Source: Schmidtea polychroa (lineage: Eukaryota). From it: a DNA stretch of 64,000 nt. The DNA is taken from assembly GCA_044892525.1 (NCBI GenBank), contig CM097885.1, positions 13,208,001-13,272,000 of the forward strand, read 5' to 3'. A program made the translations under genes and the position numbers. Under the pieces are notes generated by a model. It was not told the DNA's origin, ran no database searches, and saw only the letters and a list, made by a program, of their open reading frames with translations. Positions within the stretch are counted from its first letter, which is position 1; each line of letters begins with the position of its first letter. Below are positions 16,714 through 59,659 of the stretch, in pieces.

Positions 16714-19589
16714 TAGTGCATTCAATACCGGTATACCGGTATCGGTACTACCGGTATTACCGGACTTTTTTCTGGTACCGAAATACCGGTATTGAGTTGG
16801 ATCAATGCCGGTATTTCCGGTATAGGATATATAAAAAATATTTAAAATTGTTTCTCAATTTTACTTAAAAAATATTATAATAATAAGGCATTGCTTTTTT
16901 AAGCAAAAATAAATTAGACTTTCATAACTAAATTGACGAATGCAGGACTATTAATGGTTTTGCATGACTGTTTATGCAGAACTAAAAATTGTAAAATTCA
17001 TGACCAATTACAATTTTTCCTGACTAAATTTATTGTTTCCTGACTATTTATTATTTAACTAGTATTTAAAAAGACAAATGTCTCTATTATATCTTCAGTA
17101 CTCATGCAAAAACTTTATGCCTAATAGATTATTAAATCCCATTAACCAAATATTTCTAGTATGCGATGTGCTAGATTAAATTATTTTATTGACCCGAAAT
17201 TTCAGAAACCTACTTTTAAATTCAATAATAACAATAACGTTATATAATAATTCAGTAGTTAAATTGAAATCCGATTGATATTTATTCAAATAAATACGTC
17301 TACGTTAGTAAATTTGCATTTAAATAGTAAGTATTTAATTTATAAACATAGATTTGGGTACTTTAAATGAATTAGTTCGATTTTATTTGCAGATTTTTGT
17401 TTTTGTTTGAAGACAACAAGAAATAGACAAAAAAAGTTTTATATTAATTTAATATCCAGAAACCCCCAAAATGTCCCAAAAAATATTCAAAGAATTCAGC
17501 ACCGGCGCACGAGTAGACGAAAATTCTGTGTGGTTTTATTTTCTGCGTGATAAAGAAAATCAACTTTCAAAGTGTAAGAAATGCGACAAAGAGATAAAAT
17601 CACATGGTGGCAGTACCAGTGGACTCCATACACATCTAAGAACAAACCATGAAATTGACTTGCTAAAGAGAAAATCGACCCAAGATGCAGCATCGTCATC
17701 GGCTTCGTTTTCATCGGCTCCGTTGTCATCGGCCAAAAAACCCAAACCTCTGATCACCGATTTCTTCCAAAATCAACATGACAAGTCGTTGCCTGCAGTT
17801 CTTTCTAGAATGACCGCCCTTGACGGACTGCCCTTTAGCGTATTTGCCACATCGGCTGAACTGAGAACATCGCTAGGAGCTCGTGGGTTTATTGTTCCGA
17901 AATCGGCGGCGACAATTAGAAATATGGTAGTAAAATACGCAAACACAATCAGAGAGACGGTCATATCCAATTTCACTCGTCTCCGAACGCAAGGGATGCG
18001 ATTCAGTTTGACATTTGATGAGTGGACGTCAATAAAAAATCGCAGATATTTAAATGTAAACGTTCACACCGAGGACGAATTTTGGAGCCTTGGATTAGCT
18101 AGAGTTGTTGGTTCACTGCCTGCTGAAAAATGCATTGAGTTGGTTCAAAAAGTGTTGACGCAGTTTATGCTGAATTACGATGAAGACATTGTGTGCATTA
18201 CTACTGATGGAGCTTCCGTAATGCAAAAAGTGGGACGTTTAAGCAATTGTGATCAACAGTTTTGCATTGTGCATGGCATTCAATTGGGTGTGCTAGACGT
18301 TTTGTACAAAAAACCGTCAACTTCTGCTAAAACAATCTTGAAAGGAATCTCGAATGACGAGAGAAGCAGAGAAAGTGAGGATGACGACGCAAACCTAACC
18401 AATGATGATGAAGAAGACTTTTCGGACGGGTTTCAAGTTGTGATGAGTGAGAAGGACGACACTATCCAACTGACTGATGAGTTGCAGCCGTTAATCGCTA
18501 AGGTGCGCACCGTTGTAAAATTGTTTCGCTGTTCACCGACAAAAAATGATAAAACGCTCGAAAAATACACAGTAGACGAATTTGGTAAAGCTCTTCCACT
18601 AATATTCGATTCAAAAACTCGTTGGAGTAGCTTGCACACAATGCTCGCACGTTTCATGAAATTGAAAAATTGCATTCGCAAGTCGCTGATTGACCTTCAG
18701 TCCAAAATTGAGATAAGTGACAAGGAGTTCGACACAATTTCATCGGTTGTGGCATGTCTCGAGCCAGTGAAATTAGCCGTGGAAGCATTGTGTCGCGATG
18801 ATGCAACACTGTTGTCAGCCGATACAACACTATTATTCATGGTAAATTACCTTGGAGACACGGAATTAGCTGTTAAATTGAAAGCTGCGTTGGTGCGACG
18901 AATAAATGAGCGACTGACACCTTTTTCTAGCTTGCTACACTATCTGCACAAGGGCCATCAACGATACGAGAATTTGGATCCAGCGCTGTCTTTTGAGCAA
19001 CTTAGCAAATCAGCCATTTTAAATGCCATAGTTCAACTGAATGAGCGGCTCAATCAGCGAGCAGACGAGCCTCTCCCTTCGACCAGCGTTTCATCTGATA
19101 GCGATTCTGTTGACAGCACTGCAAACTTGTCATTGAAAGAAAAGCTTGACATGGCAATTTTGAATGATAAAAAGTGTAAAAATAAGGTAAGATTGAACGT
19201 TTCGAAAGATTTATCAAAAACAATCCGCAAGGAGATTGCAATTTTCGAAGTAGAAGGAACTCGTGGAACATATTTGCAAAACACCTACGAATACTTGAAA
19301 ACTATAAAGCCAGCAAGTGTGGAATCGGAGCGTGTATTTTCAGCAAGTGGCAACTTTGTCACCAAATTACGATCATCTCTTGAGGATGACACTCTGAATG
19401 CCCTTTGTTTCTTACGGGCTTATTTTACAAAGGAGAAAAACAGCGCAAAATGAAAAAAATCGTTATTTTGATACAAAATAAAAAAGTTTATTGAATCACT
19501 GTAAATTTTTACTATTTATTTGATATTTTAATCAAATTTTATTTTTTTCTAGTTTCAATACCGGTATTATACCGGTATTAAATGCACTA
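16714..19589 (+). mobile_element. Full-length, apparently autonomous hAT transposon
   Basis: TIRs TAGTGCATT(C/T)AATACCGG, perfect 8-bp TSD ATGGTAGA, many subterminal TACCGGTA repeats, intact transposase ORF. Confidence 0.95.
17471..19453 (+). CDS. hAT transposase with BED zinc finger, 660 aa
   Basis: VWFYF..CKKC..STSGLHTHLRTNH (BED), FDEWTS, ITTDGA, CIVH, TRWSS and the C-terminal dimerisation motif PASVESERVFS..RSSL. Confidence 0.95.
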   Translation: MSQKIFKEFSTGARVDENSVWFYFLRDKENQLSKCKKCDKEIKSHGGSTSGLHTHLRTNHEIDLLKRKSTQDAASSSASFSSAPLSSAKKPKPLITDFFQNQHDKSLPAVLSRMTALDGLPFSVFATSAELRTSLGARGFIVPKSAATIRNMVVKYANTIRETVISNFTRLRTQGMRFSLTFDEWTSIKNRRYLNVNVHTEDEFWSLGLARVVGSLPAEKCIELVQKVLTQFMLNYDEDIVCITTDGASVMQKVGRLSNCDQQFCIVHGIQLGVLDVLYKKPSTSAKTILKGISNDERSRESEDDDANLTNDDEEDFSDGFQVVMSEKDDTIQLTDELQPLIAKVRTVVKLFRCSPTKNDKTLEKYTVDEFGKALPLIFDSKTRWSSLHTMLARFMKLKNCIRKSLIDLQSKIEISDKEFDTISSVVACLEPVKLAVEALCRDDATLLSADTTLLFMVNYLGDTELAVKLKAALVRRINERLTPFSSLLHYLHKGHQRYENLDPALSFEQLSKSAILNAIVQLNERLNQRADEPLPSTSVSSDSDSVDSTANLSLKEKLDMAILNDKKCKNKVRLNVSKDLSKTIRKEIAIFEVEGTRGTYLQNTYEYLKTIKPASVESERVFSASGNFVTKLRSSLEDDTLNALCFLRAYFTKEKNSAK

Positions 19590-42746: not shown

Positions 42747-43218
42747 TTGAATCTAACAGAAAGAAATTAAATGTTAATAAAAAAGTTTTAAAAAATATTA
42801 AAATACAATGTTTATTAACTTACATATTTAAACATTATAAAATATAAAAAATCATTTTGTTTTGTAAATGTAAATAAAATTATGAAGCAAACACTTTTTA
42901 ATAATTTATAAGAGATTTTTATTTATGTATATATATATATATATATATATTTGCTTCTTTAACTTAAAAAGAAGAATTTTAAAAGTTATTAAACAAATTT
43001 TATACATTGTAGGAAAATGAAAATTTGTATCTTACTATGGAAAATAAAACATTAAATAAATTTAATGAGCCAGTGTTTTAATTATTAAACTTATATTTAT
43101 TTTAATATATCTATTAATTCAAAATTAAGATGAATTTAATTAATAATTTAAAGATTTTCTTGCTTTGGTGTGGGTATAAGACTAATAACCAAATATTTTA
43201 TTATTTCTCATATTTTAG

Positions 43219-43608
43219 GAGGACTTTAAAGTAGTTATTACTGATAATTTGAGAACTGTTTATTTTAGTGATGGTATTTTGTATCAAGATATTAAAACGG
43301 GAGTTTTAATAGATCCTTCAAATGACAATTCTGATGAGTTAAAAGTAGTCATCTTTTTTTTAATAACATTATTAATTATAAATAATCAATTTTAGGTTTC
43401 GAGAAGAAATGAAACAAAATCCGAAGATAAAAATTGGATTCACTCATTTTTCACGAAAAGTTTCTATTTTGTATCAAGATCTGGAGAAATTATTGCAGAT
43501 TATTTTAGAATTACTAAGCCTAGATATCATAATTATTTATATCAACCGATCGTCAAGCGTCAACAATCAGGTCTTAATGACAAAAGTTATGGATCTTTTA
43601 TAAATTAA
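43219..43608 (+). CDS. FAM177-like protein (exons 43219-43344 and 43396-43608; first exon possibly from ATG 43037)
   Basis: Spliced translation contains LRTVYFSDGIL and SGEIIADYFRITKPRYHNY, resembling the FAM177 motifs RxIHFxDG and GExLAxxFGITxPKY. 51-bp GT-AG intron. Confidence 0.7.
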
Positions 43609-44679
43609 CGTAGAATGTATCGATTTAATTGTTGGTTTTGGTCGTTTTTTTCTGGTTTTGTGGATGGGATTTATTCTCATCTGACATTTTGATATTAATT
43701 CTGGTTGTGTTTCATTTGTTTTGGATTTATTGAGAATTATTTCAAATGTAATTTAGTTTATAATTTTGTATTATTAACAAGTGGTTAGAACAGGACACTC
43801 GTTAAGGTAAGTTATCAAATTTGGCAATAAAACATGTGTTATACCCACTGGCAATGAATAAGGTAGAGTGAGACAATTCTGCATTAGATTTTACTCATTT
43901 GCCTCCAAACTTACAATGAATTGCATCGGCTATAATATTTGAAAAATCAATATAACGCGAGCTGGCGATAAATGAAATGTTCTCACTGACCAAGGGAGCG
44001 TAATCAGGACCATTTAATTGTAGGTAAGAAATATTGCCAGCCGTAGTCATCATGCAATATGAGCTGTTGAATACTGTTATAGAAAACGGCAAATAAATAT
44101 AGTGTAGTTTAGCTTACCGCCAGTTTAAACCTTTAAAATGAACGTAAAGTGAATGAGAGTAGCAAGTGGAACATTTTGGGATTAATCTGTTGTATATGGT
44201 TTGTGTGAGTTCCTTTTATTCCTGTCAGTTAAGGATAATGTTATAGAAAATGCCCAGAAGTTTCTGTTATATTTTATTTAAAAACAGGTGGAATATTGAT
44301 TAATGGCGAAATATAAATTTTGATGTACAAATCGATAAAAATATACCCTTGGAAAAAGATATTCAAAAAATCGAAATTAATTAGAAATATTAGCTATTTG
44401 GGGAACTCGAGCGATAAATAAGAAAATAATGAAAAAAGGAAAACTCATATTCAAAATCCAGAAAAGGTTGACTTCCGTTGGGTTACATACCTTATTAATT
44501 TCTATAGAAGTGGTGCGTTACTGGTAAGCCACATTTTACCATTTAGTGATGTTTTCAGTGTAACCTAGAATACTAGGTTGCTGTACCACTCAATACCGGT
44601 TGGAACTGTATCAAATGGGTGAGTATTTGTGAAAATAACGTTTACGCTTGTATACTATCATCGGCAAGCACTCGAAAGG

Positions 44680-44925
44680 AGTAGTGAGGAATCTATGCAC
44701 CCCAGCACCCCCACCCTAAAAAAAAACAGCGCTATTGACCCATATTTTCCACATTTATGTGCTTTTTTACCCCATATTCTTCACTTTTTTTAACTTTTAA
44801 ACTTTGTCCCCTATTGCCATTAACCCTTAATTTCTTCCCTTAAAAGTAAAAAAGTTCGGAATAGATGTATTTATAGATTAGTAATTCCGAGAAAAGGTAA
44901 CGGGGTGCATAGATTCCTCACTACT
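44680..44925. repeat. Perfect 24-bp inverted repeat at the Polinton left end
   Basis: AGTAGTGAGGAATCTATGCACCCC (44680-44703) and its reverse complement (44902-44925). Confidence 0.92.
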
Positions 44926-45605
44926 TGGTCTTAAGGATTTAATGTTATAAGGATTTAATGTTATAAGAATATCAGATTACCTAATTCATAATGATCTAGG
45001 TCGCCTGATCACCTTAAGGTTTTGAAAGTTTTAAAAATAAAAAATTTTATGAAATAGTAAAACTGCTCTGAGAGGACAGTGGTTTTTTTTTTTTTTTTTT
45101 TCACTGTCCCCTCAACAGTTTTTTTTGATCCGGATCATTTTTTTTATTTATCAACCTCTTTCGTTTATCGAATCTCTTCCAATATACAAGCTGGCCAGAC
45201 TCATACATCAGAATCAATTCGATAATAGCAGCACACCTTATTATTCGCTACTCGCTCGAATACGATTTCATCGGCATTTTAAGTGTGCTGCTCGAAAGTA
45301 CAAATGAATTCGAAAGCGAATTCGAAAGAGGTCCGAAAACAACTGAGAAATAAATGTGCACATTACCGGGATCGATCCGGGGGTGTTCGAAAGACAGGTG
45401 GCGATAATTACCGGTTCGCCACCATCACCCGTTTCAATATTTTTTTTTTCATATTTATGTTTAAAAAATAAATAATTAATAAAAAAATAAAATAAAATAA
45501 AATAAATAAAATAAAATATACAAGTACTTTATAAATATAAGATACCCACACTATTTTCAATATTATTTTCAAATTTTTAATATTATTTTATGTTGAAAAA
45601 AAACT

Positions 45606-45678
45606 AACCTCAGATGTGATTTGAACCGCTATCCATTTGAACCACTGTGCCAGTCTATTCCCACTGCGCCATCAAGGT
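45606..45678 (-). ncRNA. tRNA-like Pol III unit 1
   Basis: A box TGGCGCAGTGG (45671-45661), B box GGTTCAAATC (45627-45618), partly pairing acceptor stem ACCTTGA/CTGAGGT, and a T8 run at 45603-45596. Confidence 0.6.
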
Positions 45679-45925
45679 TTGAATTTTTGTCATTTTTTAG
45701 ACTATAAATAATCGATTCAAGTTCTTTAACTCTTTCCTGTAATTGTTTCATTTTCTTCAATCTTATATCAGCAACATCTACAGCCTTCATATAAAAATGT
45801 CGATACTTTTCATTATCTACCATCAACTCTTTGATGTATTCTAATGGTTCTTCTTCTCTTCTTTTCATTCTCTTATGTTTAACTTCATTCAATTCATTTC
45901 TCATTCTTTCTTTTAACTCATCCAT
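45629..45925 (-). CDS. Small charged coiled-coil Polinton protein of unknown function, 98 aa
   Basis: ATG in the AAAATG context shared by other element genes; E/K/R-rich helical sequence. Its 3' end overlaps Pol III unit 1. Confidence 0.55.
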   Translation of the reverse strand: MDELKERMRNELNEVKHKRMKRREEEPLEYIKELMVDNEKYRHFYMKAVDVADIRLKKMKQLQERVKELESIIYSLKNDKNSNLDGAVGIDWHSGSNG

Positions 45926-46095
45926 TTTTATAAATATTTTTTTATTGGATATATTAATTTTTGGTAGCTTAAGTTAAAACGTTTTTGATCTTAAATTTCC
46001 AAGAGTTGCCGTTGACCAATCTCATTAAAAATTTGTACAAGTACTAAATCGAGTATGCTGATCAATATTTCGTTAAAAAAAAATTTGAAAAAAAA

Positions 46096-46168
46096 TGACC
46101 GAAATGGGATTTGAACCCATTGGTATTGGCAATGCAGTCGAGTGCTATTACCACTAAGCTATACTCAA
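46096..46168 (-). ncRNA. tRNA-Cys(GCA)-derived Pol III unit 2 (not a functional tRNA)
   Basis: TTGAGTA-TAGCTTAGTGGTAATAGC-A-CTCGACT-GCA-TTGCCAATACCA-ATGGG-TTCAAAT-CCCAT-TTCGGTCA followed by T8. D arm and T arm pair; acceptor and anticodon stems do not. Confidence 0.7.
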
Positions 46169-46328
46169 TATAAAATAAGTTGTTAATGTGTGACTATTTA
46201 TTGATGAAATTAATAATTAATTATTCATTTTCTCGACAACTACCACTCAGATCCATCTGAAAATTTAAATATATACTAAAATCAGTACGCTGAATCAGAT
46301 TCCGTTGAAAAAAATATCGATAAAAATT

Positions 46329-46401
46329 GACCAAAATCGAAAATTGAACCCGGTACTCCCGGTGATAAAATTGAAGCCTATTCCCACTCCGCTATAATGG
46401 C
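46329..46401 (-). ncRNA. tRNA-like Pol III unit 3
   Basis: A box TAGCGGAGTGG (46394-46384) and degenerate B box GGGTTCAATT. Ends ..GGTCA then T5. Its downstream flank is homologous to that of unit 2 (233-bp spacing). Confidence 0.55.
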
Positions 46402-46457
46402 TTACATAATATATTTAATTAATCCTATTTTGTGTGTGTAAATTTTAATATATAAAA

Positions 46458-47749
46458 ATGAATAACATAAATCTTAAAATTCAAGAAAAAAATAAATTAA
46501 ATCTTGATTATAATAAAGAATTTACTCATGAAATTCAAAAAATGATATTTTAAAAATCTCTCCAACTTCAGGATCTATTGCAAACTTAAATCGTAGGGGT
46601 GATATAGTTTTTCAATCTCTTCAAACATCAAACCCTATAGATATTTGTAATGCCAAATTATATTATAAAATCGAATTAGAAATTGAAGCAAACAAAGATA
46701 TAACCCTAGAAAATAATTTCTTTCCAAATTTATTCTCCAACATGAGATTAAAACTAGGATCATCAGAAATTGAAACTGTTTTGCATCCGGGAGTATATTC
46801 TACAATGTTAAATTTTATTTTGACTGGTTGTGATTATAAAAACGAATATGGTGAATTAACAGGTTGGATTCCTGATGTTAATAAAGGGGATTTAGATAAA
46901 GATGGTTTAGATGTAAACCATGGTTACCATAAAAGAGCTGAACTTTATAAATCTAAAAAATTTGAAGGTTATTTTGAATTAAAACACTTGTTTGGATTCC
47001 TTCAAAACTATAATCGTATACTTCATAATGTTTTTATAGAATTCATCTGTAATAGAGTAGAAGGTGATAAAAGATTGTTCTATGGAGCTGTAGATACAAA
47101 AGCTAAATTAAAATTATCAACACTTGAATTACATATACCTGAATGGACATTAAACCCACATTCTGAGATTAAACTCCTTGAAAGATTAAATTCCAACAAG
47201 TCTATAAATGTAAATTATTTAAATAGAATCTGTAGTGAATTTAGTATGACAGAGGGTTCAACATATTCTATAAAGGTAGCAAATTTAGCATACCGACCAA
47301 GATATATCTTGATTGGATTCAAAGAAGTAGATTCATCTTTCCAAAAAAATAACAACTTGTTTATTCAAAAGATTGGAGTTGATAATTTAAAAGCAATCCA
47401 AATTCAATTAAATAGTTCTTATTATCCAATAAATAGAATGGAATTTAATATTGAAAATAATGAAAACATATTCCCATATCTAAATTATATTGAAACATGT
47501 TATGATTTCAAAGTTGAACCGCAATTAAGTTTAGAAGATTTCAAAAATTTATATTCTATATTTTGTATAAATGTTTCAGACCAAGATGATCGCCTAGCCA
47601 TAAATAATGTTGATGTTACACTTCATGTAACAAAGGATTCTAATTTTAAAGCTAAAGTATATACATTAATATTAGAAGAAAAGAAAATAGAAATGAAATT
47701 ATATGGTGGAAAGATTTCAATAATCGAAAATGTTAGGGGAGATTCTTGA
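46458..47749 (+). CDS. Polinton major capsid protein (double jelly-roll, hexon-like), with a 1-nt frameshift in an A6 run at 46537-46542
   Basis: The frame of ORF 46742 is open from ~46541 (ISPTSGSIANLNRRGDIVF..LENNFFPNLFSNMRLKLGSSEIE..PG..STM). It also has LKHLFGF..Y, PRYILIGF, LNSSYYP and IFCINVS motifs of invertebrate Polinton MCPs. The likely start is ATG 46458 in another frame. Confidence 0.85.
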
Positions 47750-47778
47750 TATAATCCCTGATATTTTAACATTTTAAA

Positions 47779-49188
47779 ATGTCTCTAAATAAATATTGGA
47801 GATGTGAAAGTTGTAATTGTCAAGTTACAAGACATCATAAAGCAAGTCATTTAAAAACTAAAAAACATACAGGAGGTGATCTAATTCCACGAGCTGGAGG
47901 CGATTTGCAATCTTCAAAAACAACATCTTCAATATTAAAACCTTTTACTACAGAAAAATATCCAGGTGAAAGACATTTATTTAAACACAACTATACTGGA
48001 CCAGGAACACGTCTAGATATTAGATTAGATGAAAATAATAATCCCAAACAAGGAGAAGAACCAATAAATAGAATCGATCAAGCAGCTTTAAAACATGACA
48101 TTGCATACAATTCAACAAATCTTAGAGATAGACATGTTGCAGATGTGAATTTAATACATGATTTAAATAGTATCCAAAATCCATCAACCCTAGAAAAGAT
48201 TCAAAGAGCTCTAGTTAAATTAGCAATGAAAGGTAAGATTTTCATAGGCTTAGGACACAGTCCGATCACCATGGGTGCAAGACTTCCTAGGAAAGCAAAA
48301 GATGTTGCTTATAAAAAGATTATCGAACAAGCAGAGATTGAAAGATCCCTCGAGAGTACAGCCAAGACTAGTTTACAAACCCCAACAGAATCAGAAATAA
48401 AATATGCAAAGGAATTACACCATGAATTTAGAAAAAATAAAAAATATTTAAAAGTTCAAGTACATGAAAAAGATCAAACATGGTCTGCAGATTTAGTCTT
48501 TATGCCCAAATCATCAGACCCTGAAAAATATAAAATAATTTTAACTGTAATAGATTTATATACAAGATTTGCCTTTGCAAGATGTTTAGAAAATAAAACA
48601 GGATATTCTATTACAGAAGCATTTGAAAATATATTTGAAGAAAATCAAAGAATCCCAAAATATTTATGGTGTGATAAAGGAACAGAATTTTATAACAAAG
48701 TTTTTACAAAGTTTTTAAATGAAAATGATATTAAATTATATTCAACAGAAAACGAAGGAAAAGCAGTCGTAGTTGAAAGATTAAATAGAACATTAAAAAA
48801 TAAAATGTGGAAATATTTTACTGCTATTGGAAAACAAAAATGGAACAATGAATTGTTACAAAAGATTGTAAATGAATATAATAATGATGTACATAGTTCT
48901 ATAAAATTAACACCTTTAAATGCTTCCATGAAGCCTGAAACCATTAAAGTGGTAAATATTGAAAATGATGTTATTGAAAAACCAAAGTTTAAAATTGGTG
49001 ACCGAGTAAGAATATTTAAATATAAAAATAAATTTGAAAAAGGATTCACAGCAAAATGGACAAATGAAATTTTTATTATAAATAAAATACATTATACAAC
49101 TCCAATAACATATACCATCTTTGATTTAAATACTGAAAAAATATTAGGTAGATTTTATAATAATGAACTACAGAAAACAGATTTTTAA
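47779..49188 (+). CDS. Zinc finger - parvovirus-type phospholipase A2 (PLA2X) - retroviral-like integrase fusion, 469 aa
   Basis: CESCNC..HLKTKKH; NYTGPGT..PINRIDQAALKHDIAY..ADVNL (PLA2); WSADL..VIDLYTRF..WCDKGTEF..VERLNRTLK (DDE); KFKIGDRVRI..WTNEIF..FYNNELQ. Confidence 0.93.
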   Translation: MSLNKYWRCESCNCQVTRHHKASHLKTKKHTGGDLIPRAGGDLQSSKTTSSILKPFTTEKYPGERHLFKHNYTGPGTRLDIRLDENNNPKQGEEPINRIDQAALKHDIAYNSTNLRDRHVADVNLIHDLNSIQNPSTLEKIQRALVKLAMKGKIFIGLGHSPITMGARLPRKAKDVAYKKIIEQAEIERSLESTAKTSLQTPTESEIKYAKELHHEFRKNKKYLKVQVHEKDQTWSADLVFMPKSSDPEKYKIILTVIDLYTRFAFARCLENKTGYSITEAFENIFEENQRIPKYLWCDKGTEFYNKVFTKFLNENDIKLYSTENEGKAVVVERLNRTLKNKMWKYFTAIGKQKWNNELLQKIVNEYNNDVHSSIKLTPLNASMKPETIKVVNIENDVIEKPKFKIGDRVRIFKYKNKFEKGFTAKWTNEIFIINKIHYTTPITYTIFDLNTEKILGRFYNNELQKTDF

Positions 49189-49199
49189 GTCGACAAGGC

Positions 49200-50006
49200 C
49201 TAAAATAAACTTTTCCATATTTCAGCTTCTTCTCTATCCAAATAAATATAATTATATTTTTCTTTCCAATGATTATCAACAAACATATCAAACATATTCT
49301 TATCAGGTTCAACATTTGAAAATAAATCATTATAAATCATATTCTTATCACGGCGATCTAATTTAAAAAATATAAAACAATTGGAATTATTTCTTATTGA
49401 ATTTTTATCTAAAGCATAATATGTTTGAGATATATAAATAACATTACAATTATTATGTCGACCTCGTGTAAAGTAACTCTTTTGAATCTCTTGATTTTTC
49501 ATATTAACAACATCATCAAATATAACTAGATTCTTTTTATCTTTAGGAAGTAAATCACAATGTAAAACATCTTCAGGTTTATTAGAGAATAAAACTTGAA
49601 TTGCCTCCTGCCCTTCTTCACAAATATAATCATTTTTATTACTAATATCTGATTCTAAAATCTTTTCCTTATACCAATCAACCATATCACAAGGTTGAAA
49701 AACTTCTTCAGGACACCTATGTTGATTTTTAAAAATATCAATTATTGCTTTTTTAGTTAATTTATTTTCAAATCCTCATTTCAAAAGTTGTAATTCTGGT
49801 TGATTTATGGTTGTAGAATAAAAGATTAAATTATTATAATCTAAAAAATCATCTTCAAGTAACATTCTCAAAACAAGTACATTCTTTCCACATCCAGAAG
49901 AACCAACAATTAATAATCTAAAATTATCAGGAAATACTTTATTATTAAATTTACTCTTATGTCTATTTAAAATTGGTTTCCAAATTATTGGACTTCGTAC
50001 ATCCAT
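49200..50006 (-). pseudogene. Polinton packaging ATPase (A32/FtsK-like) with one in-frame TGA at 49778-49776
   Basis: MDVRSP..RLLIVGSSGCGKN (Walker A)..LLK*GFENK..LVIFDD (Walker B)..FTRGRHNN..ISQ..IRNN. The two track ORFs are in the same frame. Confidence 0.9.
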
Positions 50007-50021
50007 TTTGTTTATTATAAA

Positions 50022-50600
50022 ATGACAACTGAAGAATCTTTGCAAGAATTAATAAATTCAAATAAAAATAAATCAGTAGTAATTGATGGTAAAAAATATT
50101 TTATTGGAAAACATGTAAAAGAACAAGTTAGAGCGAAGCTCCACGAAGCTAAAGAAGGTGGCATTCTTCCATTAGCTGCTTTAATACCTGCAATCATTGC
50201 TGGTTTATCAGGTGCTGCTGGAATAGCTGGAGGAATTGCAACTACAGTTCAAAAAGCTAAAGAATCTCAAAAGACAGACCTAGAAAAAGAAAAACTACAA
50301 ACTGAAATCGATTCAATGAAGAAGGTAGGGCAAGCTAAAGGGGGAGTGTCCGTTGGAAAGGGTCTCTATCTTAATCCATATGAGGGGAGTCGGCAAAAGT
50401 CTCAGGGCAAAGGTCTCTATCTTGATCCTTATAAAGGTAGAGGTTTAAATGATTTTTTAAAAAATCAAATTTCTACATCTGAATCTTTATCTTCAAAAGA
50501 TAAAGAAGATTTAAAAAAAATATGTAAATCTTTAAAGAATGGATGCCTTTGTAAAACTAAAAATGGTAAAGGATTATACTTGAAGCCCTTCGAACTATGA
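50022..50600 (+). CDS. Adenovirus pX/core-protein-like Polinton structural protein, 192 aa
   Basis: GGILPLAALIPAIIAGLSGAAGIA resembles the adenoviral pX hydrophobic segment (GGILPLLIPLIAAAIGA). Three GKGLYLxP[YF] repeats. Confidence 0.7.
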   Translation: MTTEESLQELINSNKNKSVVIDGKKYFIGKHVKEQVRAKLHEAKEGGILPLAALIPAIIAGLSGAAGIAGGIATTVQKAKESQKTDLEKEKLQTEIDSMKKVGQAKGGVSVGKGLYLNPYEGSRQKSQGKGLYLDPYKGRGLNDFLKNQISTSESLSSKDKEDLKKICKSLKNGCLCKTKNGKGLYLKPFEL

Positions 50601-50622
50601 TACCATTTTTGATACCATTAAA

Positions 50623-51504
50623 ATGGTATATGAAGAAAGATTATCACTTTTAAAAAAATTACAATCAGAACAAGATAAATATAATAAAAAAGATACAACT
50701 CAACATGCTGAATCTATAATATTAAATGAGGTAATAACACAACAACAGGGGCCAACAATTAAAGCTATAAAAGAGTTGGAAGATTTCAATGAGCAAGCAA
50801 AATTTAAAGAGTTAGAAGATAAAAAACAAAAAATAAAAGAACTAGAGTGGCAGGATAAAGAAAAAGAATCCAGTGAAAACCATCCTGAAAGAAATCAAAG
50901 AAAACGCAGAAGAATTTCTAATGTGGAAGAAGAAGAAATGTTTTTAAAAACAAAACCTCTTAAAGTTGATCCTAAAATTAGAGATGATTTACCTCCTTCA
51001 ATTAGACCCACATTTAATACTAATACTGAAGGATATCAAATAATAACAATTAATAAACAAAACTTTACTTTATATTCAAATTCAGAAAATAAATCACGTA
51101 TTCATTCACAAAATGTTTATAATAATGAATATTTAGACTTTGAATTTACAGATGATTTTTATAGATTACTTTGTGGATATTCTTCAGATGATGTTGAAGA
51201 AATTAAAAAATATTTAAATTTAATAAAATTAATAAGAGCTAGTTCTAAAGCAAAATATATTCAAGATTTAAAGAATTATTTAAATAAAAATGAAAAGGGT
51301 TATGTTGTTACAGAGGGAGAGGGATTAATTAGTGAAGGTGGTAAACCAAATCCCATCAATCTTTTTATTGAATTAAGAAAACTATTAGCTGCAAGGAAAG
51401 CAGGACATAATAATTTAGATTCTGATATTTTAAAGATTTCTAAAGATTTGTTAAAACAAGGAATAATTTCAAAAGATAAATTTAATAAGTATACGAAGTT
51501 ATAA
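50623..51504 (+). CDS. Conserved uncharacterised Polinton protein, 293 aa
   Basis: C-terminal GEGL..P..L..ELRKLLAARKAGHNN..I..I..LLKQGII motif, recurrent in invertebrate Polintons. Basic RKRRR stretch. Confidence 0.7.
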   Translation: MVYEERLSLLKKLQSEQDKYNKKDTTQHAESIILNEVITQQQGPTIKAIKELEDFNEQAKFKELEDKKQKIKELEWQDKEKESSENHPERNQRKRRRISNVEEEEMFLKTKPLKVDPKIRDDLPPSIRPTFNTNTEGYQIITINKQNFTLYSNSENKSRIHSQNVYNNEYLDFEFTDDFYRLLCGYSSDDVEEIKKYLNLIKLIRASSKAKYIQDLKNYLNKNEKGYVVTEGEGLISEGGKPNPINLFIELRKLLAARKAGHNNLDSDILKISKDLLKQGIISKDKFNKYTKL

Positions 51505-51526
51505 ATACGAAGTTTTAAAATACAAA

Positions 51527-51991
51527 ATGACTCCTTCAATATTAGATTTTTTAAAAACATTTGGAATAAATGCAAAAACAAATTTTGATTTAAAAGATTA
51601 TGCAAATTATTTAAATTTAAAAATTAAAATATTAATGAATGATGAATTATCAAGTCTGGAGAGTCCCCTGAATATAATAATCAATTATCAAAATTCAAAT
51701 GAAAAAGGATCTCATTGGGTTTGTATATATAAGAAATCTATCTACTTTGATTCTTTTGGGATTAAACCTACTAAAGAAGTTGAAGATTATCTCTTGAGGG
51801 GTTCTCCGATTGATTCCCCAAATGGTTATACTTTTAACTCTTTACAAGTTCAACCTTTGAATACTAAAATATGTGGTATTTTAAGTTTATATGTTTTGTA
51901 TAGATTGAATAAGGGAGAGGGAAAGGGGCATACGCAGGATTTTGAATCTATAATTCAAGAAATTTATAATGATCTAGAATCTCTACTATAA
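51527..51991 (+). CDS. Adenain-like cysteine maturation protease, 154 aa
   Basis: IIN..GSHWVC..YFDSFG..QVQ..ICG, with catalytic H, D, C and oxyanion Q. Confidence 0.92.
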   Translation: MTPSILDFLKTFGINAKTNFDLKDYANYLNLKIKILMNDELSSLESPLNIIINYQNSNEKGSHWVCIYKKSIYFDSFGIKPTKEVEDYLLRGSPIDSPNGYTFNSLQVQPLNTKICGILSLYVLYRLNKGEGKGHTQDFESIIQEIYNDLESLL

Positions 51992-52034
51992 GGATTTTTA
52001 CTATAAGGATTTTTACTATAAGGATTTTTACTAT
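51986..52034. repeat. 3 x 15-bp tandem repeat ACTATAAGGATTTTT
   Basis: Directly visible between the protease and penton genes. Confidence 0.9.
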
Positions 52035-52054
52035 ATGAATTTACTACTAAAGAA

Positions 52055-52819
52055 ATGGAGCTTCACAACCCTCCGGAAGATAATTTAAAAAAAATGGTAA
52101 ACATAATGTCAGATAAATATTCAAGAACTTTATCTATAAATTCAAAAGAATCAGACTTTACTATAAACTTTCAAGATTCAATTAAATTAGATCAAAATTT
52201 AAATTATGAATTGGGGCTATTATGGTTTTGTGCTTATAATACTATTTTTAATATAACTAAAGATAATAATAAATTTACTATTCAAACTCGTGATGGGCAT
52301 AAACCAGAAATTATAACAATAGAACCTGGGGCATATGAGATAAAAGATTTAAATGATATACTTTCTAAAAAAACAAATGAAGGTATTAAAATTAAAATGG
52401 ATATACCAACTTCAAAATGTGTAATGACTTTGAAGAATATAAAAATTAGTTTTTTAGATAATTGTTTCTTTCACACAGTTTTCGGATTTAAACCTATGGA
52501 TATAACAATAAAAGAAGATAAAATAATAACATCAGAACATATTATAAAAATAATAAATACAAACACAATAAATATTCATTGCGATTGTATAACAGGTTCT
52601 TATAATAATGGTAAACAAACAAATGTTTTATATTCCTTTCCCTCAAACACAGTTCCTATGGGATATAAAATAGTTGAAAGAATGAATCCTCCAAATTATT
52701 TACCTTTATGTAGAAAATATATAATGGATATTAATTTTAAAATTCTTAATCAAGAAGGAGAATTGATTGATTTTAATGGAGAAGAGATTTCAATGTATTT
52801 ACATTTGAAACAGGTTTGA
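52055..52819 (+). CDS. Minor capsid protein (penton-like, single jelly-roll), 254 aa
   Basis: YNTIFNI..NNKF..IEPGAYEIKDLN..INIHCDCITGSYNNGK..LYSF..VPMGYKIVE..YLP..NQEGELIDFNGE, typical of Polinton pentons. Confidence 0.88.
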   Translation: MELHNPPEDNLKKMVNIMSDKYSRTLSINSKESDFTINFQDSIKLDQNLNYELGLLWFCAYNTIFNITKDNNKFTIQTRDGHKPEIITIEPGAYEIKDLNDILSKKTNEGIKIKMDIPTSKCVMTLKNIKISFLDNCFFHTVFGFKPMDITIKEDKIITSEHIIKIINTNTINIHCDCITGSYNNGKQTNVLYSFPSNTVPMGYKIVERMNPPNYLPLCRKYIMDINFKILNQEGELIDFNGEEISMYLHLKQV

Positions 52820-52843
52820 AGATTCATTTTAAATTATTAATAA

Positions 52844-53854
52844 ATGAGTTCTTATATTCCATGTAATAGAGGTGGTGGAACAATAAAAACAGGGTTTAAT
52901 ACAGAAGAAATATTAACTTTAACAGAAAATAAATATATTAATGAAAGAGGTGATTCAATGAAGGGTGATTTAATTTTAAATGGACACAAGATAAAAGAAT
53001 TATCTTTTCCAACTGATGAAGCTGATGCTGCTAATAAGAAATATGTAGATGGTGTTAAAAAATATACTGATTTAACAACAACAAGAATTGAAAGTTCATT
53101 AACAACAAAAATTGATTCAATGGAATCAAAGCTTAATAATATCGAACAACGATTTAATGATAAATTTGACAAGTTACAAAGTCTGTTAACTGAACAAGTT
53201 GTAAAGTTAAATACTGCTATATTAAATTCTAAAGATAAACAAATTATGAATACTAAATTTAATACAATATATAAAATAATAAATGAGATGATTACATCAT
53301 TTAATAAAAGAATTTCAAATTTAGAGTCTCATGGAACACACATTAACACCACACATAGTATTAGAAAAAGAGCTGCTGAATTAGAACAGAATAAAACATT
53401 ATTACCCCATACATATAAACATTTTATAGAACCAAGTTTAATAACAACAAACAGTAAAGAATGGGGTGTTTTTATGGTTGTAAAAATTATTGATCCTTAT
53501 TTCTTTTTGTTTGATGATGATAATGAAAGAATGAAATGGTTTGTGAAATGTGATTATAATAGTAAGCTTGAAAAGGGTGATGTTATAATGACTAGTTATG
53601 ATTTACCACACGGAGATTGGTATGTTAATACTCATTCACATGGACTACATAAAGTTAAAAGTAAGAATATTCATTTTTCTAGTTCACTTGTACAATATAT
53701 AGATTTAATATTTTATGAAAAAAAGGTTGATGTTGATGAAGTTCGTAAAGCATTGAGAGAATTGTATAAAGACATCCTCTCAACAAGAGTTTCTTTTGAT
53801 ATCCGAGTATTGGTGCCAGATGGTGCTCAGAAGAATAAAGTCTTATTTTTTTAA
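52844..53854 (+). CDS. Fiber-like protein, 336 aa
   Basis: Phage tail-fiber-type motif GDSMKGDLILNGHKIKEL..PTDEADAANKKYVD, followed by a long heptad coiled coil and a globular C-terminus. Confidence 0.7.
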   Translation: MSSYIPCNRGGGTIKTGFNTEEILTLTENKYINERGDSMKGDLILNGHKIKELSFPTDEADAANKKYVDGVKKYTDLTTTRIESSLTTKIDSMESKLNNIEQRFNDKFDKLQSLLTEQVVKLNTAILNSKDKQIMNTKFNTIYKIINEMITSFNKRISNLESHGTHINTTHSIRKRAAELEQNKTLLPHTYKHFIEPSLITTNSKEWGVFMVVKIIDPYFFLFDDDNERMKWFVKCDYNSKLEKGDVIMTSYDLPHGDWYVNTHSHGLHKVKSKNIHFSSSLVQYIDLIFYEKKVDVDEVRKALRELYKDILSTRVSFDIRVLVPDGAQKNKVLFF

Positions 53855-53862
53855 TTATTAAA

Positions 53863-54471
53863 ATGGAAGAAGTAAGAGAAGAAAAAATTTACCCAGAATT
53901 GAGATCATCAGGATATTATTCCGAAGGTCACAAAGGTTCCAAGGCCTCGGCTCCCACAGAACTTGAAATTATGAGAGTAAAAGAATTTAAATCAGAAACC
54001 TTACATTTACAAGATTTATTAAAGCATTATAAAAAAATTAAAAATAGATGGAATAAAGGGAATACAGTTTTAAAAGTTATAGGTTATTCTTTAGGATTTG
54101 CATCTGCAATATTAACAGTTATTTTACCCATAACTTTACCAGTTGTTACTCTTGCACCTGTAATACTTGGAAGTATTTCTGTGGCTGATGGTTTCTTAAC
54201 TGAAATAGTTTCATTATCTTATACTTCTAAAAAGAAAAGTTTATATAGAGAAGTTTGTTTATCAATAGAATTAGGAATCTCTAAATTATTTTTATTTCAA
54301 TTAAAAGCTTTAGAAGATGGAATCTTAACTGATGATGAAATAATGAAATCAAATCAAATAATTCAAGATATTAAAAATGAAGTTATAAAATTAAAAAGTG
54401 CAAATATTATAACTAATGAATATTCTAAAAAAATTAAACGAGACAAGTGGTTAAAGAATTCTTACTTATAA
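53863..54471 (+). CDS. Polinton membrane protein with a central hydrophobic hairpin, 202 aa
   Basis: IYPEL..SAP N-terminus, basic helix, two hydrophobic segments, then the ALEDGILTDDEI motif. Possibly the family labelled gasdermin-like in adintoviruses (not verified). Confidence 0.65.
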   Translation: MEEVREEKIYPELRSSGYYSEGHKGSKASAPTELEIMRVKEFKSETLHLQDLLKHYKKIKNRWNKGNTVLKVIGYSLGFASAILTVILPITLPVVTLAPVILGSISVADGFLTEIVSLSYTSKKKSLYREVCLSIELGISKLFLFQLKALEDGILTDDEIMKSNQIIQDIKNEVIKLKSANIITNEYSKKIKRDKWLKNSYL

Positions 54472-54565
54472 AATGGGTGTATTTTTAAAAAAGTAGATCA
54501 GGTTGCTATAGTTGCTTAAATTAATTGTCGACATTTTATTATTAAAAAATTAAATATCGTTGGTT

Positions 54566-55120
54566 TCAGTTATGGTTGAAAGCCAACCTATGAATCATTA
54601 ATTTATGATCTTTAAATTCTTTATCACTTAGACCTTTTATATATTCAGAATCAGTATTAAAATATTTAAGTTCTAAACATATAGGATTAAAAACTTGAGA
54701 ATATAAAGGTTTCTCGATTTCTCTCTCGGGATAAATAATTTCAACATTATAAATATCAAGATCAGTAATCTTTGTATCATATAACGTATTCAACTTTTCT
54801 AGATTTTTTATTATAGGGATTAAATTATTTCCAATAGGCAGAGTTGTCTTTAAATCACTTAGTATGAATCTCTTATCATCATAATTTGATAATGATACTT
54901 TTTGAGATTCTATCAAGTGAATATCATGGTTTTCACTTTTAAGTTGATGTATTTCATCAATTTTATCTTTATGATTTGGGTTTAATGTATCTATATAATC
55001 TTGATGAGAAAGATTCTTTGCAACCACTCTCTGTATTCCTTTACATCTGTTATCCTTTAAATTAGTAATATTTTTTATAATTTCAAAAATGTTATTTTCT
55101 TGATTTTTAGTTTCCATCAT
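54566..55120 (-). CDS. Stand-alone paralogue of the pPolB C-terminal (thumb plus tail) region, 184 aa
   Basis: Own ATG and intact frame. KGIQ..LKSE.H.I.L..YDDKRFILSDLKTTLPIGN.LIPIIKNL..KPLY.QV..LKYFNTD.EYI.GL..HKLM is collinear with the last ~165 aa of the adjacent pPolB. Confidence 0.88.
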   Translation of the reverse strand: MMETKNQENNIFEIIKNITNLKDNRCKGIQRVVAKNLSHQDYIDTLNPNHKDKIDEIHQLKSENHDIHLIESQKVSLSNYDDKRFILSDLKTTLPIGNNLIPIIKNLEKLNTLYDTKITDLDIYNVEIIYPEREIEKPLYSQVFNPICLELKYFNTDSEYIKGLSDKEFKDHKLMIHRLAFNHN

Positions 55121-55144
55121 TTTATAGTGTTAAAATTCTAATTC

Positions 55145-56612
55145 TTAGACCAGTCGTAATTGATTTATAATTATTTCTGCAGTAATGCTTTTTAACATTA
55201 ATTTATGTGATTTATAGTCTTCTGGTGTTAGTCCTTGGATATATTCAGGATCAGTATTAAAATATTTAAGTTCTATAGGTTTTATATTTTGAACTTGATT
55301 ATATAAAGGTTTAGGAATTAATATTTCAGGATATTGGATTTCTACTTTAGCAAGTTGAAGGTCTGTAATCTCTAGGTTATAAATTTCATTTATTTTATCA
55401 AGATTTTTTATTATAGGGATTAAATCATTTCCAATAGGTAATGTTGTCTTCAAGTCAGAAAGTATAAATCTTTTATCATCATAATTTGTTATAGCAATCT
55501 TGTTACACTCTTCAAGATATATATTATGTTTCTCTGATTTAAGATGATGGGTTTTAGCAATTTTATTTTTATAATTTATATTTAATGAATCTTTATACTC
55601 TTGATGTGTGAAGGTTTTTGACACTGATTTTTGAATTCCTTTACTTTTATTTTCTTTATAGCTTTTCGGGTTTTCAGGGAATGAAGGATATTCAAATGTG
55701 TGATCTATTTCAACAGATCCTTCTCCCTCCCCTATTATAAATTTTATTGTATGCTCTTTCATAATTGGTTTGTCTTTCATTTCAAGAGAATATTGTTTAG
55801 GTCTAATAAACACTCCTCCAGTTATTGGAGTATTTGGTTTTTCATCTTTAAAAGTAAACAACTCTCCAGAATTGTTTATTAATTTATTTAAGGTTGGATC
55901 TTCACGTATTTCTTTTTTTAAATCTTTGCTATATCCTTTTAAAAACATACTATCAGTGTCCATTGCATGCATGGATATTCGATCTCCAAAATGTGGTACT
56001 AGAACATCATAGTAGGCTTCATACATTTGAAGCTTTGAAAGTTCTAAAATTGAAAACCCTATAAAGATTGGTTTATTATAAATTTTTACAGAGTTTTTAA
56101 TCTCTATGGCTATAAGGTTACTAGAGAATATCTCGGCATTTTTAAATGTGGGCTTTCCAATTATCCGGTTGTACCTATTAAGGTCTTTGGATGTATTGGT
56201 CAAAAGCTCTACACGTGTGTACTTGTCTATATTCTCCATGGTCTTTCCAAAGACCGCATTGTTCAGGAGTTTGTAAATCATATCAAGAAATGCATTTCCA
56301 GCTCTCTTTGCTGCATTTCTTTTCAAAATATTTCCCTCTATGAATTTTTTCATAAAAGGAGCTTGTCGAAATTTAATAATGGAATGTACTTTTTTTAAAA
56401 CCATTCCATGGGAGAGATAAAACTGAAGGAGTCTATAATGACAAAGGTAATCAGTTTTATCGGTCTGATCGCATAAAAGTTTTATACATGGTGTTCTATT
56501 CTGAGCAATCTGCCAGTCTGAAAGTTCTTCAGTCGAGATCTTTCTTCTTACTGGAGCAAATGGAAAGAATCTTGTCCTGGATTTTATTTCATTGGGATAT
56601 TCAAGATAGCAT
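55145..56612 (-). pseudogene. Protein-primed family B DNA polymerase, 5'-truncated
   Basis: The frame is open from ECYLEYP..FPFAP (~56612) through KLLNNAVFGK (motif B), AMDTDS (motif C), FKDE, PKQY, KGI and DDKR. Motif A, exonuclease and terminal-protein regions are missing. Confidence 0.92.
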
Positions 56613-57449
56613 TCTTTTTTATGGGCATAATAATTTGCTTGCAGTTTTTCAGTGCCCAGTGATGTTTAATCGTCAAAAATATTGACTGTAACAACAAAAA
56701 ATTCACAAAGATGGCATCTTTATGTGATTGAATAAAAAAATGTCACTCATCTGGTTTCACCCTTATTTATAAGCTATAAAATGTATTTTCTCTACCCTAG
56801 ACTGAATTTAGGTGAGGGGATCTGACACCAAATAAGAACCCCATAAATTAATAAAACAATAATAAATGTTACCCGGGCCCATTTACATGAAAATTATTTA
56901 AATCCATATCATAACATTAACTGTTAGAATTTTTTAGAAATCGTTTTATGTCACGAAAAATGAGAGTGTATAATGCTCTTTATTGAGTCGTTTTATTTTT
57001 GGACACAGTAATATTCACTTGTAGATTTATGCAAAAAACGATTCTCATTCCTTGAGATTGGTTATGGAATACATTGACTCAAAATTAGATATCTTGGCTC
57101 GTACAACATTTGTAACAATGACAATCATCATGCTCATTGGTAGAAATTAATAATTATTCGCGGCAGTGCATAGAAACTAGAAATAGGAAAAATTTCATAA
57201 AATAGCATAAGGAATAGAATAAGAATTAAAACTATAAGAAAAACGATAAGAAACACTAGAATATTCTATGAAAATGGCAAAATCCGACATGGGGCCGAAA
57301 CAAACGAATACTAAATAAAAATATAAGAATTTAGAAAATTTATTCGCCAAAAATAATATAAAAATAACGTAATAATTAAAAACAATATAAATTATATATT
57401 ATAACGATTAAAACTAGCATAAAATATTCTAGAAAATGACCATATCAAT

Positions 57450-58301
57450 CAGCGCCGGTTCGAGATAATTATACGCCCCAGGCGAAAATTATAAAAAGCG
57501 CCCTATTTTAAAAATTAGGTACAAAAATTATGATAAAATAAAAAAGTTTAACAAAAAACAATCCATTTATTACTTTATTTCATTTTTTTCGATCTACTAT
57601 GACGGAAGATAGGTTGAATAATTTGGCCATTATTTCAATTGAAAATAATGTTGTAGCAAACCTAAATTTGGAGGCAGCAATAGAAAAATTTGCAGACATG
57701 AAAGCCAGGAAAAAATCATTCTTATAAATTCTGTTTTTTTATATATATGTCACATATATAAAAAAACAGAATTTATAAGAATGATTTTTTCCTGGCTTTC
57801 ATGTCTGCAAATTTTTCTATTGCTGCCTCCAAATTTAGGTTTGCTACAACATTATTTTCAATTGAAATAATGGCCAAATTATTCAACCTATCTTCCGTCA
57901 TAGTAGATCGCAAATACGTTTTTATTAGTTTTAATTTACTAAAACTTCTTTCACCACTCGCAACACTAACAGGAATTGTTACAAGAATTGTTATAGCTGT
58001 TAATTTAACTCGCACATCAGTTTTTGTAATACATACATATATTTTTTTTTATTTCAATTTTCAATACATATCAGAATTTCTCAGAATTGGAAATTCGTAT
58101 ATTTTGCATGTACTTTTTTTTTGTTTTTTCTTATTTTCAATTTTTTTTAAAACGGTTGGTTTCATAGATAAATTTCAAAATATAAAGTTTTGGAGGCTTA
58201 TTTTATAATTTACTTTGATTGTTTATAATAAATTTTGGCGCCCTCTAAAAAAAGGTGCCCTAGGCTATGGCCTAGGTCGCCTGGCCCTTGGGCTGGGCCT
58301 G
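57450..58301. mobile_element. Non-autonomous hAT element containing a fold-back of the transposase C-terminus
   Basis: CAGCGCCGG / CTGGGCCTG ends with perfect 8-bp TSD ATATCAAT. Minus-strand PVSVASGERSFSKLKLIKTYLRSTM..RLNNLAIISIE. ~160-bp inverted duplication at 57590-57910. Confidence 0.88.
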
Positions 58302-58363
58302 ATATCAATCATGGTAGTGAATTTAATAAAAATTAAATAAAATATCAAAATTATAAAATAAAA

Positions 58364-59411
58364 GGCGACGGTTTACTATACGCATCCCAAAAAAATTACA
58401 ATAAATAAATCAATTAAATAATCATTTATTTTATGGCAGAAATTGCGTACAAAAACATATCTAATAAATGATTTTCTGTTGTATTTTGCCTTGATAACCA
58501 CATTTTAAATCAATAAAAGCCGTTTTTTCGGTAAATGACATTCCTCTTCTACTTCTTAAATCAGTCTTTAAATTACCCCATAATCCTTCAATAGTGTTGG
58601 TATGAACACCATTTTCTTGGTTAACATATTCCAATTTGTGATTAACAGCATGGTGTGTGTAATTTAATCCAGGTAAATTTCCGAGATTGAAGGTTTCGGT
58701 ATAATATCCACACCACATATCGGAGTGAATAATAGAGCCTGGTCTTATGAATCTAGTGATTAAAGGAACAAGTGTTTCACGATCTCTTTTTTCGACAACT
58801 CTTGCAAACCATTTTTTTGAAACTCTGTCAATACCGCCCATCATCTAAACTTCCATGTATCTCCGACCTCTGTTATATTTGGTATTTTTGGAGATAAGAG
58901 TTTCGTCGATTTCAACGATTACTCATTCTCCCCCAATCATGAGATCATCGTAATTTAAATTTAGCAAAGAGAAAAGAAATTATTCCAATCTGCCAAAGTT
59001 TTATTTGATAACTTTAACATTATTAAAATAAAATTTTATTGCTAGGCACCCTAATACTCAAAAATAAGTCAAAAGAAGCAATGTAGAAAGTGGCAGCTTT
59101 GATTTCTCAAAAAAAGAATCTTTCCTTACACTGCAGGAAGAACATTTTATTGGACATCTATAAGTATATCCATCTGTAATATTATTTCCTTTTATTGAAG
59201 TCATTTGTTGACCACAAAAACAATTAAAATTACTTTTTAAAAGTTTTTTCTCTGAAAGTATTCATTACATTCCAATTTATCAGAGCTAATTTGAAAAATT
59301 ATGTATAAGTCAGGATAATTTTGCATTTTAAGGTTTAAAATAAAATGATTATTTAATTGATTTATTTATTAAATAATTATTTTTTTGGGATGCGTATAGT
59401 AAACCGTCGCC
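58364..59411 (-). mobile_element. Merlin (ISXO2/IS1016-like) DNA transposon, full length, transposase disrupted
   Basis: TIR GGCGACGGTTTACTATACGCATCCCAAAAAAA (similarity extends to ~65 bp) with 8-bp TSD AAATAAAA. IVEIDET, GSIIHSDMW..Y and VNH..GVHTNTIEGLW motifs, with stops and frameshifts upstream. Confidence 0.93.
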
Positions 59412-59659
59412 AAATAAAATAACAAAATTCGCCATAAAAATCTAAAAATAAATGGAATTAAAAGAATTCGAATTTGTTTTTACCTGCATCAGTGCTTGCA
59501 CACAAAAATTAGGATATATAAGCAGACACATTTTGGTCATAATATAATGATTTTGGTAATCCAAATTATACGAATTGTAGGGCAAAGAACAATAAAAAGT
59601 TTGAAGAATATTTTTTTACAATGACTTACCATTAGACGAGATTAATCTAACACGAAAGC

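Follow-up and report, generated by a model that had tools for sequence, protein, structure and literature searches.

A single open reading frame (ORF) in Schmidtea polychroa DNA joins a small zinc finger, a parvovirus-type phospholipase A2 (PLA2) and an rve integrase without a chromodomain. The frame was confirmed as real in a 64,000-nucleotide stretch of contig CM097885.1 (the window, to which all positions refer), and the fusion is conserved: it is neither a copy accident nor rare, but an ordinary member of a common architecture. In relatives, PLA2 and integrase are encoded separately, joined in frame, or placed out of frame behind a run of A residues; judging from their sequence, these out-of-frame junctions are quite probably recoding sites. 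We consider it moderately likely that the protein is a virion precursor, cut by a protease at GG/D and GL/G (slashes mark predicted cuts), with the integrase linked in frame or by recoding, like Gag-Pol.

The zinc finger-PLA2-integrase ORF

The ORF and its parts are as follows.

47779..49188, plus strand: zinc finger-PLA2-integrase ORF, 469 aa, in frame, no internal stop
47803..47868, plus strand: C2H2-like finger (C9, C12, H24, H30), an N-terminal, lineage-specific module
47896..47904, plus strand: GG/D, predicted N-terminal maturation cut, a conserved motif (motif class from PMC6048507, as far as its accessible text goes)
47902..48252, plus strand: parvovirus-type PLA2 domain (Ca loop Y72-G76, H106-D107, Y110, D122; PF08398)
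48247..48255, plus strand: G157-L-G159, predicted C-terminal cut GL/G, a conserved motif
48256..48405, plus strand: variable linker, in frame in the window copy, without a run of at least six A (A>=6) and without a slippery heptamer
48406..49185, plus strand: rve integrase, short type from A-x-E-L-H (D238, D299, E333), with a beta-rich C-terminal domain; PF00665

An earlier note, made from the letters of this DNA alone, had claimed an uninterrupted 469-aa frame, a PLA2 with intact Ca loop and catalytic HD, and an integrase with D-D-E and no chromodomain, and all of these claims held. Pfam placed Phospholip_A2_4 at aa 66 to 131 (E 1.5e-8) and rve at aa 229 to 321 (E 6e-12), each of them passing the curated threshold; the same scan gave no Chromo match in the window ORF. 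The motifs lie at C9-x2-C12...H24-x5-H30, Y72TGPG76, K105HD107, GGD at 32 and 40, G157LG159 and D238/D299/E333; the YxGxG Ca loop, HDxxY and second Asp that characterize parvovirus-type PLA2 (PF08398) are all present. The C2H2-like finger, also read by the note, has the expected pattern but is without a Pfam match in the window copy.

In an AlphaFold model of the 469-aa ORF (mean pLDDT 80.7, pTM 0.53), the domains are separate, and the low-confidence stretches 37 to 54 and 157 to 170 coincide with both Gly motifs. The integrase part matched a foamy-virus intasome (E 1.6e-14) and a MELD virus integrase (E 3.9e-22) in Foldseek, and the PLA2 part has fold matches to entomopoxvirus and densovirus PLA2 models. 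A wide fold search with the PLA2 model returned rice PLA2 (2wg7) as the top match, with an rmsd of 3.8 over 87 residues and a Z of 7.2, which is within the background range of the tool; the match to bee-venom PLA2 was weak (Z 5.9).

The surrounding Polinton element

The fusion ORF is the second gene of a Polinton cassette of about 10 kb, beginning 29 nt downstream of the 3' end of the capsid gene. The other genes are, in order:

46458..47749, plus strand: double-jelly-roll major capsid gene (PF21738, E 3.4e-23), with a frame change near its 5' end
49200..50006, minus strand: A32-type packaging ATPase gene, broken by an early stop codon
50022..50600, plus strand: separate pX-like core gene, with GG/ILPL and repeated G(K/R)G motifs (weak Adeno_PX match, E 0.04)
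50623..51504, plus strand: 293-aa conserved Polinton gene, a putative core protein (weak tblastn matches to ORFs of loci L001, L003 and L008, E 5e-5 to 3e-4)
51527..51991, plus strand: putative 154-aa maturation protease (homologous ORFs in L002 and L003, E down to 4e-12)
52055..52819, plus strand: minor capsid (penton) gene (homologous ORFs in L001 and L003, E down to 2e-25; penton label from size and position)
52844..54471, plus strand: two accessory ORFs, a 336-aa coiled-coil and a 202-aa hydrophobic one (ORF list, homology search)
54566..56614, minus strand: protein-primed PolB remnant, C-terminal part only, with a duplicated tail (PF03175, E 7.4e-9)

The window thereby holds the genes by which a Polinton/Maverick (Polintoviricetes) is recognized, namely an rve integrase with D-D-E, a protein-primed PolB (as a remnant), a double-jelly-roll capsid, a penton, an A32 ATPase and a cysteine protease. 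The 154-aa protease is without a curated Pfam match; we take its H63, D75 and C116 to be the catalytic triad, by adenain/Ulp1 motifs. The pX-like gene is the half that PLA2X, a PLA2 gene of other Polintons, has fused to PLA2.

The element is decayed, its capsid, ATPase and polymerase genes being broken. No pair of terminal inverted repeats was found around the cassette (43000 to 59500 searched), and the window copy is truncated. The PolB remnant is without the N-terminal part, where adintoviruses carry an OTU-like domain, and the end of the gene is present twice (54566 to 55495) as a direct repeat of 300 nt, 74% identical and 600 nt apart.

The flanks are AT-rich, repeat-rich eukaryotic DNA with transposase-like ORFs, of which only the ISXO2-like one was Pfam-scanned. 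It is a transposase fragment of the ISXO2-like (IS1595) kind, with a Pfam E of 1e-13, in a small inverted-ended element at 58364 to 59411. A near-perfect palindrome of 164 bp with a 1-nt spacer (57586 to 57914) adjoins the truncated Polinton end, and perfect 24-bp inverted repeats starting AGTAGT enclose 198 nt at 44680 to 44925, possibly a MITE or a Polinton-type end. An exon-like ORF with a Walker A motif (14470 to 14955, minus strand) presumably resembles a Rad51 paralogue, and an open frame of 666 codons (17453 to 19453, plus strand) is, we assume, similar to a hAT transposase with a BED finger.

Conservation of the fusion

Homologues were sought among proteins of 257 to 821 aa, a search that favours fusions because only proteins of this size were visible to it. 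Both the PLA2 and the rve Pfam domain were present in 103 of the best 120 of 570 homologues, so that the architecture is common in databases, an outcome that the earlier note had listed as counting against its claim. Among these best 120, D-D-E is kept in 119, and H106, D107, Y110 and D122 in 112 of the 113 that cover them. An integrase tail longer than 30 aa is present in 9 of the 120, with a Chromo match in P0115 and P0091. The spacing from G157 to E212 is 54 aa in the window and 5 to 252 aa in homologues.

Three Gly motifs had been named in the note as possible cut sites. Two of them are conserved among the best 120 of 570 homologues, AGGD as G40-G41 (81/97 covering homologues) and IGLG as G157-x-G159 (97/117), but TGGD (residues 31 to 34) was rejected as a conserved cut site, with Gly at position 32 in 0/120. 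The P4 residues are off the adenovirus consensus in most homologues.

The C-C-H-H finger pattern was found in only 12/120 (best 120 of 570), other lineages having a DUF5679 Zn module or none in its place. A similar finger occurs in a separate ORF of L002 (E 1e-4), and P0009 has a weak zf-C2H2 match (E 0.08). The zinc finger is a swappable, lineage-specific N-terminal piece. Before GG/D-PLA2, sister lineages usually carry DUF5679 as the N-terminal module (L093, 6306 to 6818, and L002, 7066 to 7590, both Pfam-confirmed; L119, 9821 to 10336); this domain of unknown function may thus serve as a Zn module of the virion core.

The fusion is not specific to this copy, as sister copies show: in the sister proteins P0001 and P0124, at about 90% identity, it is in frame. 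No junction-frameshifting indel was found among the matches listed in contigs of four public runs from four studies, contigs being assemblies that drop rare variants, and overlapping contigs of run X2 span the linker without gaps. A single-protein scan of viral contigs and a phage collection found no relatives.

Three junction states in relatives

Relatives were also sought with the PLA2 domain alone (alignment A2), which gave 526 confirmed loci in metagenomes; the 80 best were kept. Together with the window, L001 and L002, 83 loci were examined, of which 48 had an integrase anchor within 260 nt. Both domains were intact in 28 of these, and removal of 2 duplicate linkers left 26 distinct junctions; the length filter left out L042 and L048, which are in-frame fusions.

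In state A (25 of the best 80 of 526 loci), PLA2 is separate and its stop lies one residue after the G157 equivalent, that is, at the predicted G-x/G cut. The integrase of these loci is longer, about 1 kb downstream where the contig reaches, and has its own ATG in L093. State A loci form one weakly supported clade (76/55), which points to about one event. In state B, the integrase lies within about 100 nt behind PLA2, out of frame, after an A>=6 run. State C is the in-frame PLA2-integrase fusion, as in the window. The 26 distinct intact junctions, window included, comprise 18 at -1, 4 at +1 and 4 in frame. L045, whose integrase ATG overlaps the PLA2 gene end, may represent a fourth state with translational coupling.

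Among 150 representative proteins, 103 reach the PLA2 end: 27 continue into integrase, 56 have a tail of 2 to 45 aa (some short-tailed rows perhaps clipped by contig ends), 6 stop within one residue and 14 have another long tail. Of 28 viral-contig PLA2 loci, 27 were examined (L012 repeats L001), and an integrase lies behind PLA2 in L001 and L002 only and in none of the other 25, the contig of L025 ending too early for the integrase region. Viral contigs of about 3.3 kb with a related PLA2 and no integrase behind it are L013 to L023, L026, L027 and L029. L119 is a 14.7-kb Polinton contig inside a bacterial genome bin, probably contamination, and its junction is at +1 with an A7 run.

Predicted processing of the precursor

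The window PLA2 is flanked at both ends by candidate GG/X and GX/G motifs, and the pX-like gene contains such motifs too. Cuts at GG/X and GX/G were shown experimentally for the mavirus protease, and mavirus virions contain an rve integrase together with a hydrolase that is processed and has a candidate GK/G site (Born 2018, PMC6048507, in its accessible text). The earlier note had proposed a protease-cut virion polyprotein; its motifs do fit the mavirus sites, and stand-alone PLA2 genes stop at the second one, in such a way that the G-x-stop end of state A is the product expected from cutting. We infer that cleavage of the precursor by the element protease is likely, and its packaging in the virion somewhat less so, though still favoured. 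The insect-type PLA2X of L003 has the same GxG, followed by a Lys-rich tail and then a GG/ILP pX; the window, L001, L002, L061 and L093 encode this pX motif apart from PLA2, in a gene of its own.

In an unlikely alternative, the fusion would remain uncut, and PLA2 (with the finger) would stay on the integrase as a membrane- or DNA-tethering domain replacing the usual integrase N-terminal domain. Linked integrases are indeed without the N-terminal region that the separately encoded state A integrases have (L093), the linker is as short as 5 aa in homologues, and GxG sites of the mavirus capsid protein were not cut in vitro according to the available text of PMC6048507. However, insect-type integrases (L003) are about as short, with their own ATG and without PLA2; Gly motifs stand on both sides of PLA2 with stand-alone genes stopping at the same place; and the model combines a pTM of 0.53 with a disordered linker. 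If the fusion is cut during maturation, it would serve co-packaging and stoichiometry, and not the physical coupling of membrane penetration to integrase delivery that the note had envisaged.

Out-of-frame junctions as candidate recoding sites

An A>=6 run lies within 30 nt of G159 in 18/18 of the -1 junctions (coding windows taken from these loci would predict 0.2) and in 0/4 of the in-frame junctions (Fisher p 1.4e-4, a value that overstates independence because the loci are related). From the A-run, the -1 frame is open to the integrase start, (K)W(T/S)D..LA.ELH, in 17/18, and frame 0 stops within 4 to 18 codons in 17/18. In L001, whose -1 frame is closed, the frame is kept across the A-runs and shifts further downstream. 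In 14/18 the first Met of the integrase comes only after the first catalytic Asp, the two lying 31 to 32 and 27 codons from the anchor, respectively; the remaining four are L002 and L112 with an earlier Met, L052, cut by the contig end, and L001.

Heptamers are present at 14/18 of the -1 junctions, two of them unusable (L001, L112), leaving usable canonical ones at 12/18, for example T TTA AAA and A AAA AAC; the other junctions have A-runs of other phase or ending. No stable structure, a frameshift-stimulating hairpin included, was found in the 80 nt downstream of the A-run at the 18 loci (mean z +0.28, from folding without pseudoknots). A-runs also occur at the +1 junctions of L043, L060 and L085, plus L119, and Lys-rich in-frame junctions are found in L116, P0187, P0233 and P0256. 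Given both shift directions and no structure, sliding on poly-A lysine codons (described in the consulted part of PMC4363877) or polymerase stutter would fit as well as classical -1 frameshifting.

The integrases behind the -1 junctions of class B (state B) show pN 0.18 versus pS 0.87, with a dN/dS of 0.058 on the 5 unsaturated of 66 pairs, and are thus under strong purifying selection. DNA identity among -1 loci is 56 to 92%. In the PLA2 tree (72 rows, 121 columns, midpoint root, many forks unresolved), -1 loci fall in several parts, interleaved with in-frame rows, and the junction label changes at least 3 times on starred branches.

It is improbable that the out-of-frame junctions are decayed or mis-assembled in-frame fusions, arisen at a homopolymer indel hot spot, with the in-frame form alone functional. 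A-run length does differ between near relatives, some junctions are at +1 and L001 changes frame late, 20 of the 48 loci with an anchored junction are incomplete or carry breaks at other places, and many loci are probably endogenous copies. Decay or mis-assembly is nevertheless at odds with the frames themselves: 18 of 21 intact junctions with an A-run are at -1 and none was classed in frame, and these loci carry seven further A>=6 runs in their coding parts without any change of frame. Identical junctions recur in separate assemblies (L049 and L050), 9/10 rows of one starred clade are at -1, and the early frame-0 stop is common to nearly all -1 loci.

Splicing of a shared short intron out of the linker was rejected as an explanation: neither L044 nor L049 can hold a GT-AG intron of at least 20 nt that would restore the frame. 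Least probable of all is a class-B integrase made as a separate protein from a spliced leader or non-AUG start, with genes that merely abut and an in-frame class of secondary fusions: L045 and L002 have their own ATG and a YAG occurs in the open stretch of 12/18, but 6/18 have no YAG, the pyrimidines before the others are mostly 4 to 9 of 15, the intron result stands against it and the A-run enrichment is left unexplained.

Proposed mechanism and comparison with known systems

If the out-of-frame junctions are recoding sites and the precursor is processed, PLA2 with its N-terminal Zn/basic module would be packaged as a minor virion protein, and the integrase would enter the particle as its C-terminal passenger. 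The element protease would then cut at GG/D and GL/G, releasing a free PLA2 of about 117 aa and a short integrase, the former for membrane breach at entry and the latter for insertion of the incoming genome. Integrase output would be set by the junction type. In the lineage of the window, the in-frame link would give PLA2 and integrase at 1:1; in many sister lineages, the ribosome or polymerase would slip on the A-run behind GxG and yield much PLA2 and little integrase, following the logic of Gag versus Gag-Pol. The probable origin is a gene like PLA2X in which the integrase displaced the pX half and the Lys-rich tail left the A-run, although the change may have run in either direction.

In retroviral and LTR-element Gag-Pol, the integrase is a C-terminal extension of a virion protein, joined in frame or through -1 recoding and set free by the element's own protease. 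The Polinton case differs in that it concerns a DNA virus-like element and a carrier that is PLA2 rather than a capsid protein; no downstream stimulatory structure was found, and the window itself is in frame, with the canonical -1 frameshift heptamer X XXY YYZ absent from its junction.

The closest known gene is PLA2X of alpha-adintoviruses or group-2 Maverick-Polintons (Starrett 2021, PMC8502044; "CAP" of Geisler 2018, PMC5803895), which, by the accessible text of these papers, shares with the window a parvovirus-type PLA2 that sits in a Polinton alongside genes for capsid, penton, protease, ATPase, protein-primed PolB and rve integrase. PLA2X ends its PLA2 in the same GxG as the window (L003). 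As described there, it has a C-terminal pX and a separate integrase with a chromodomain, whereas in the window pX is separate, the integrase lies behind PLA2 and a chromodomain is absent in its lineage. The window gene is not of the PLA2X class, its pX-like motif being in an ORF of its own (50022 to 50600), outside the PLA2 ORF. Adintoviruses are defined in the available part of PMC11071296 by an integrase with a C-terminal chromodomain and an OTU-like domain at the PolB N terminus, and the window integrase does not have that chromodomain. In mavirus, the integrase (MV02) and the hydrolase (MV13, with an alpha/beta fold) are separate gene products, and no PLA2 fold is described in the accessible text of PMC6048507.

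Software-predicted -1 slippery sites in adintoviruses are given for Penton and Hexon-Adenain only (Buck 2024, PMC11071296); these are other genes of the same virus group, and PLA2-integrase is unmentioned in the accessible text. PLA2 or PLA2X is treated as a gene of its own where it is discussed in the portions covered of PMC8502044, PMC3671162, PMC5803895, 10.64898/2026.06.19.733378, 10.64898/2026.07.28.741253, PMC11131425, PMC11071296, 10.1101/2021.01.25.428050, PMC12567637, PMC6048507, PMC11161782 and 10.64898/2026.10.13.758929. A literature search over open full text found no description of a PLA2-integrase fusion or frameshift in the text that it covered; the genome maps of PMC8502044 are pictures and might show one. 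The PLA2-integrase architecture is common, yet undescribed as far as this search reached. According to the consulted part of a 2026 preprint (10.64898/2026.06.19.733378), no Maverick-Polinton virions have been observed.

Implications

The surprising and testable part of these results is the series of separate, recoded and in-frame junctions in relatives. We give an even chance to the broader reading that a wide Polinton clade converged on the Gag-Pol solution, in which the integrase would be the passenger of a packaged phospholipase, in frame or through structure-independent slippage on an A-run, to be freed by the virion protease, and in which lineages would tune the ratio of PLA2 to integrase by switching between the three junction states. 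The relatives joined through an A-run suggest a retrovirus-like loading of the inserting enzyme into the particle, which bears on how the Polinton integrase reaches the incoming genome. Given the naturally occurring junction series and a precursor whose cut sites are defined, small reporters and purified proteins can be used to test packaging, processing and recoding. If the reading is true, functional recoded genes would lie behind many Polinton integrases that are annotated as pseudogenes, or as truncated with a start after the first catalytic Asp, and a eukaryotic DNA virus may be added to the examples of A-run slippage as a means of expressing genes.
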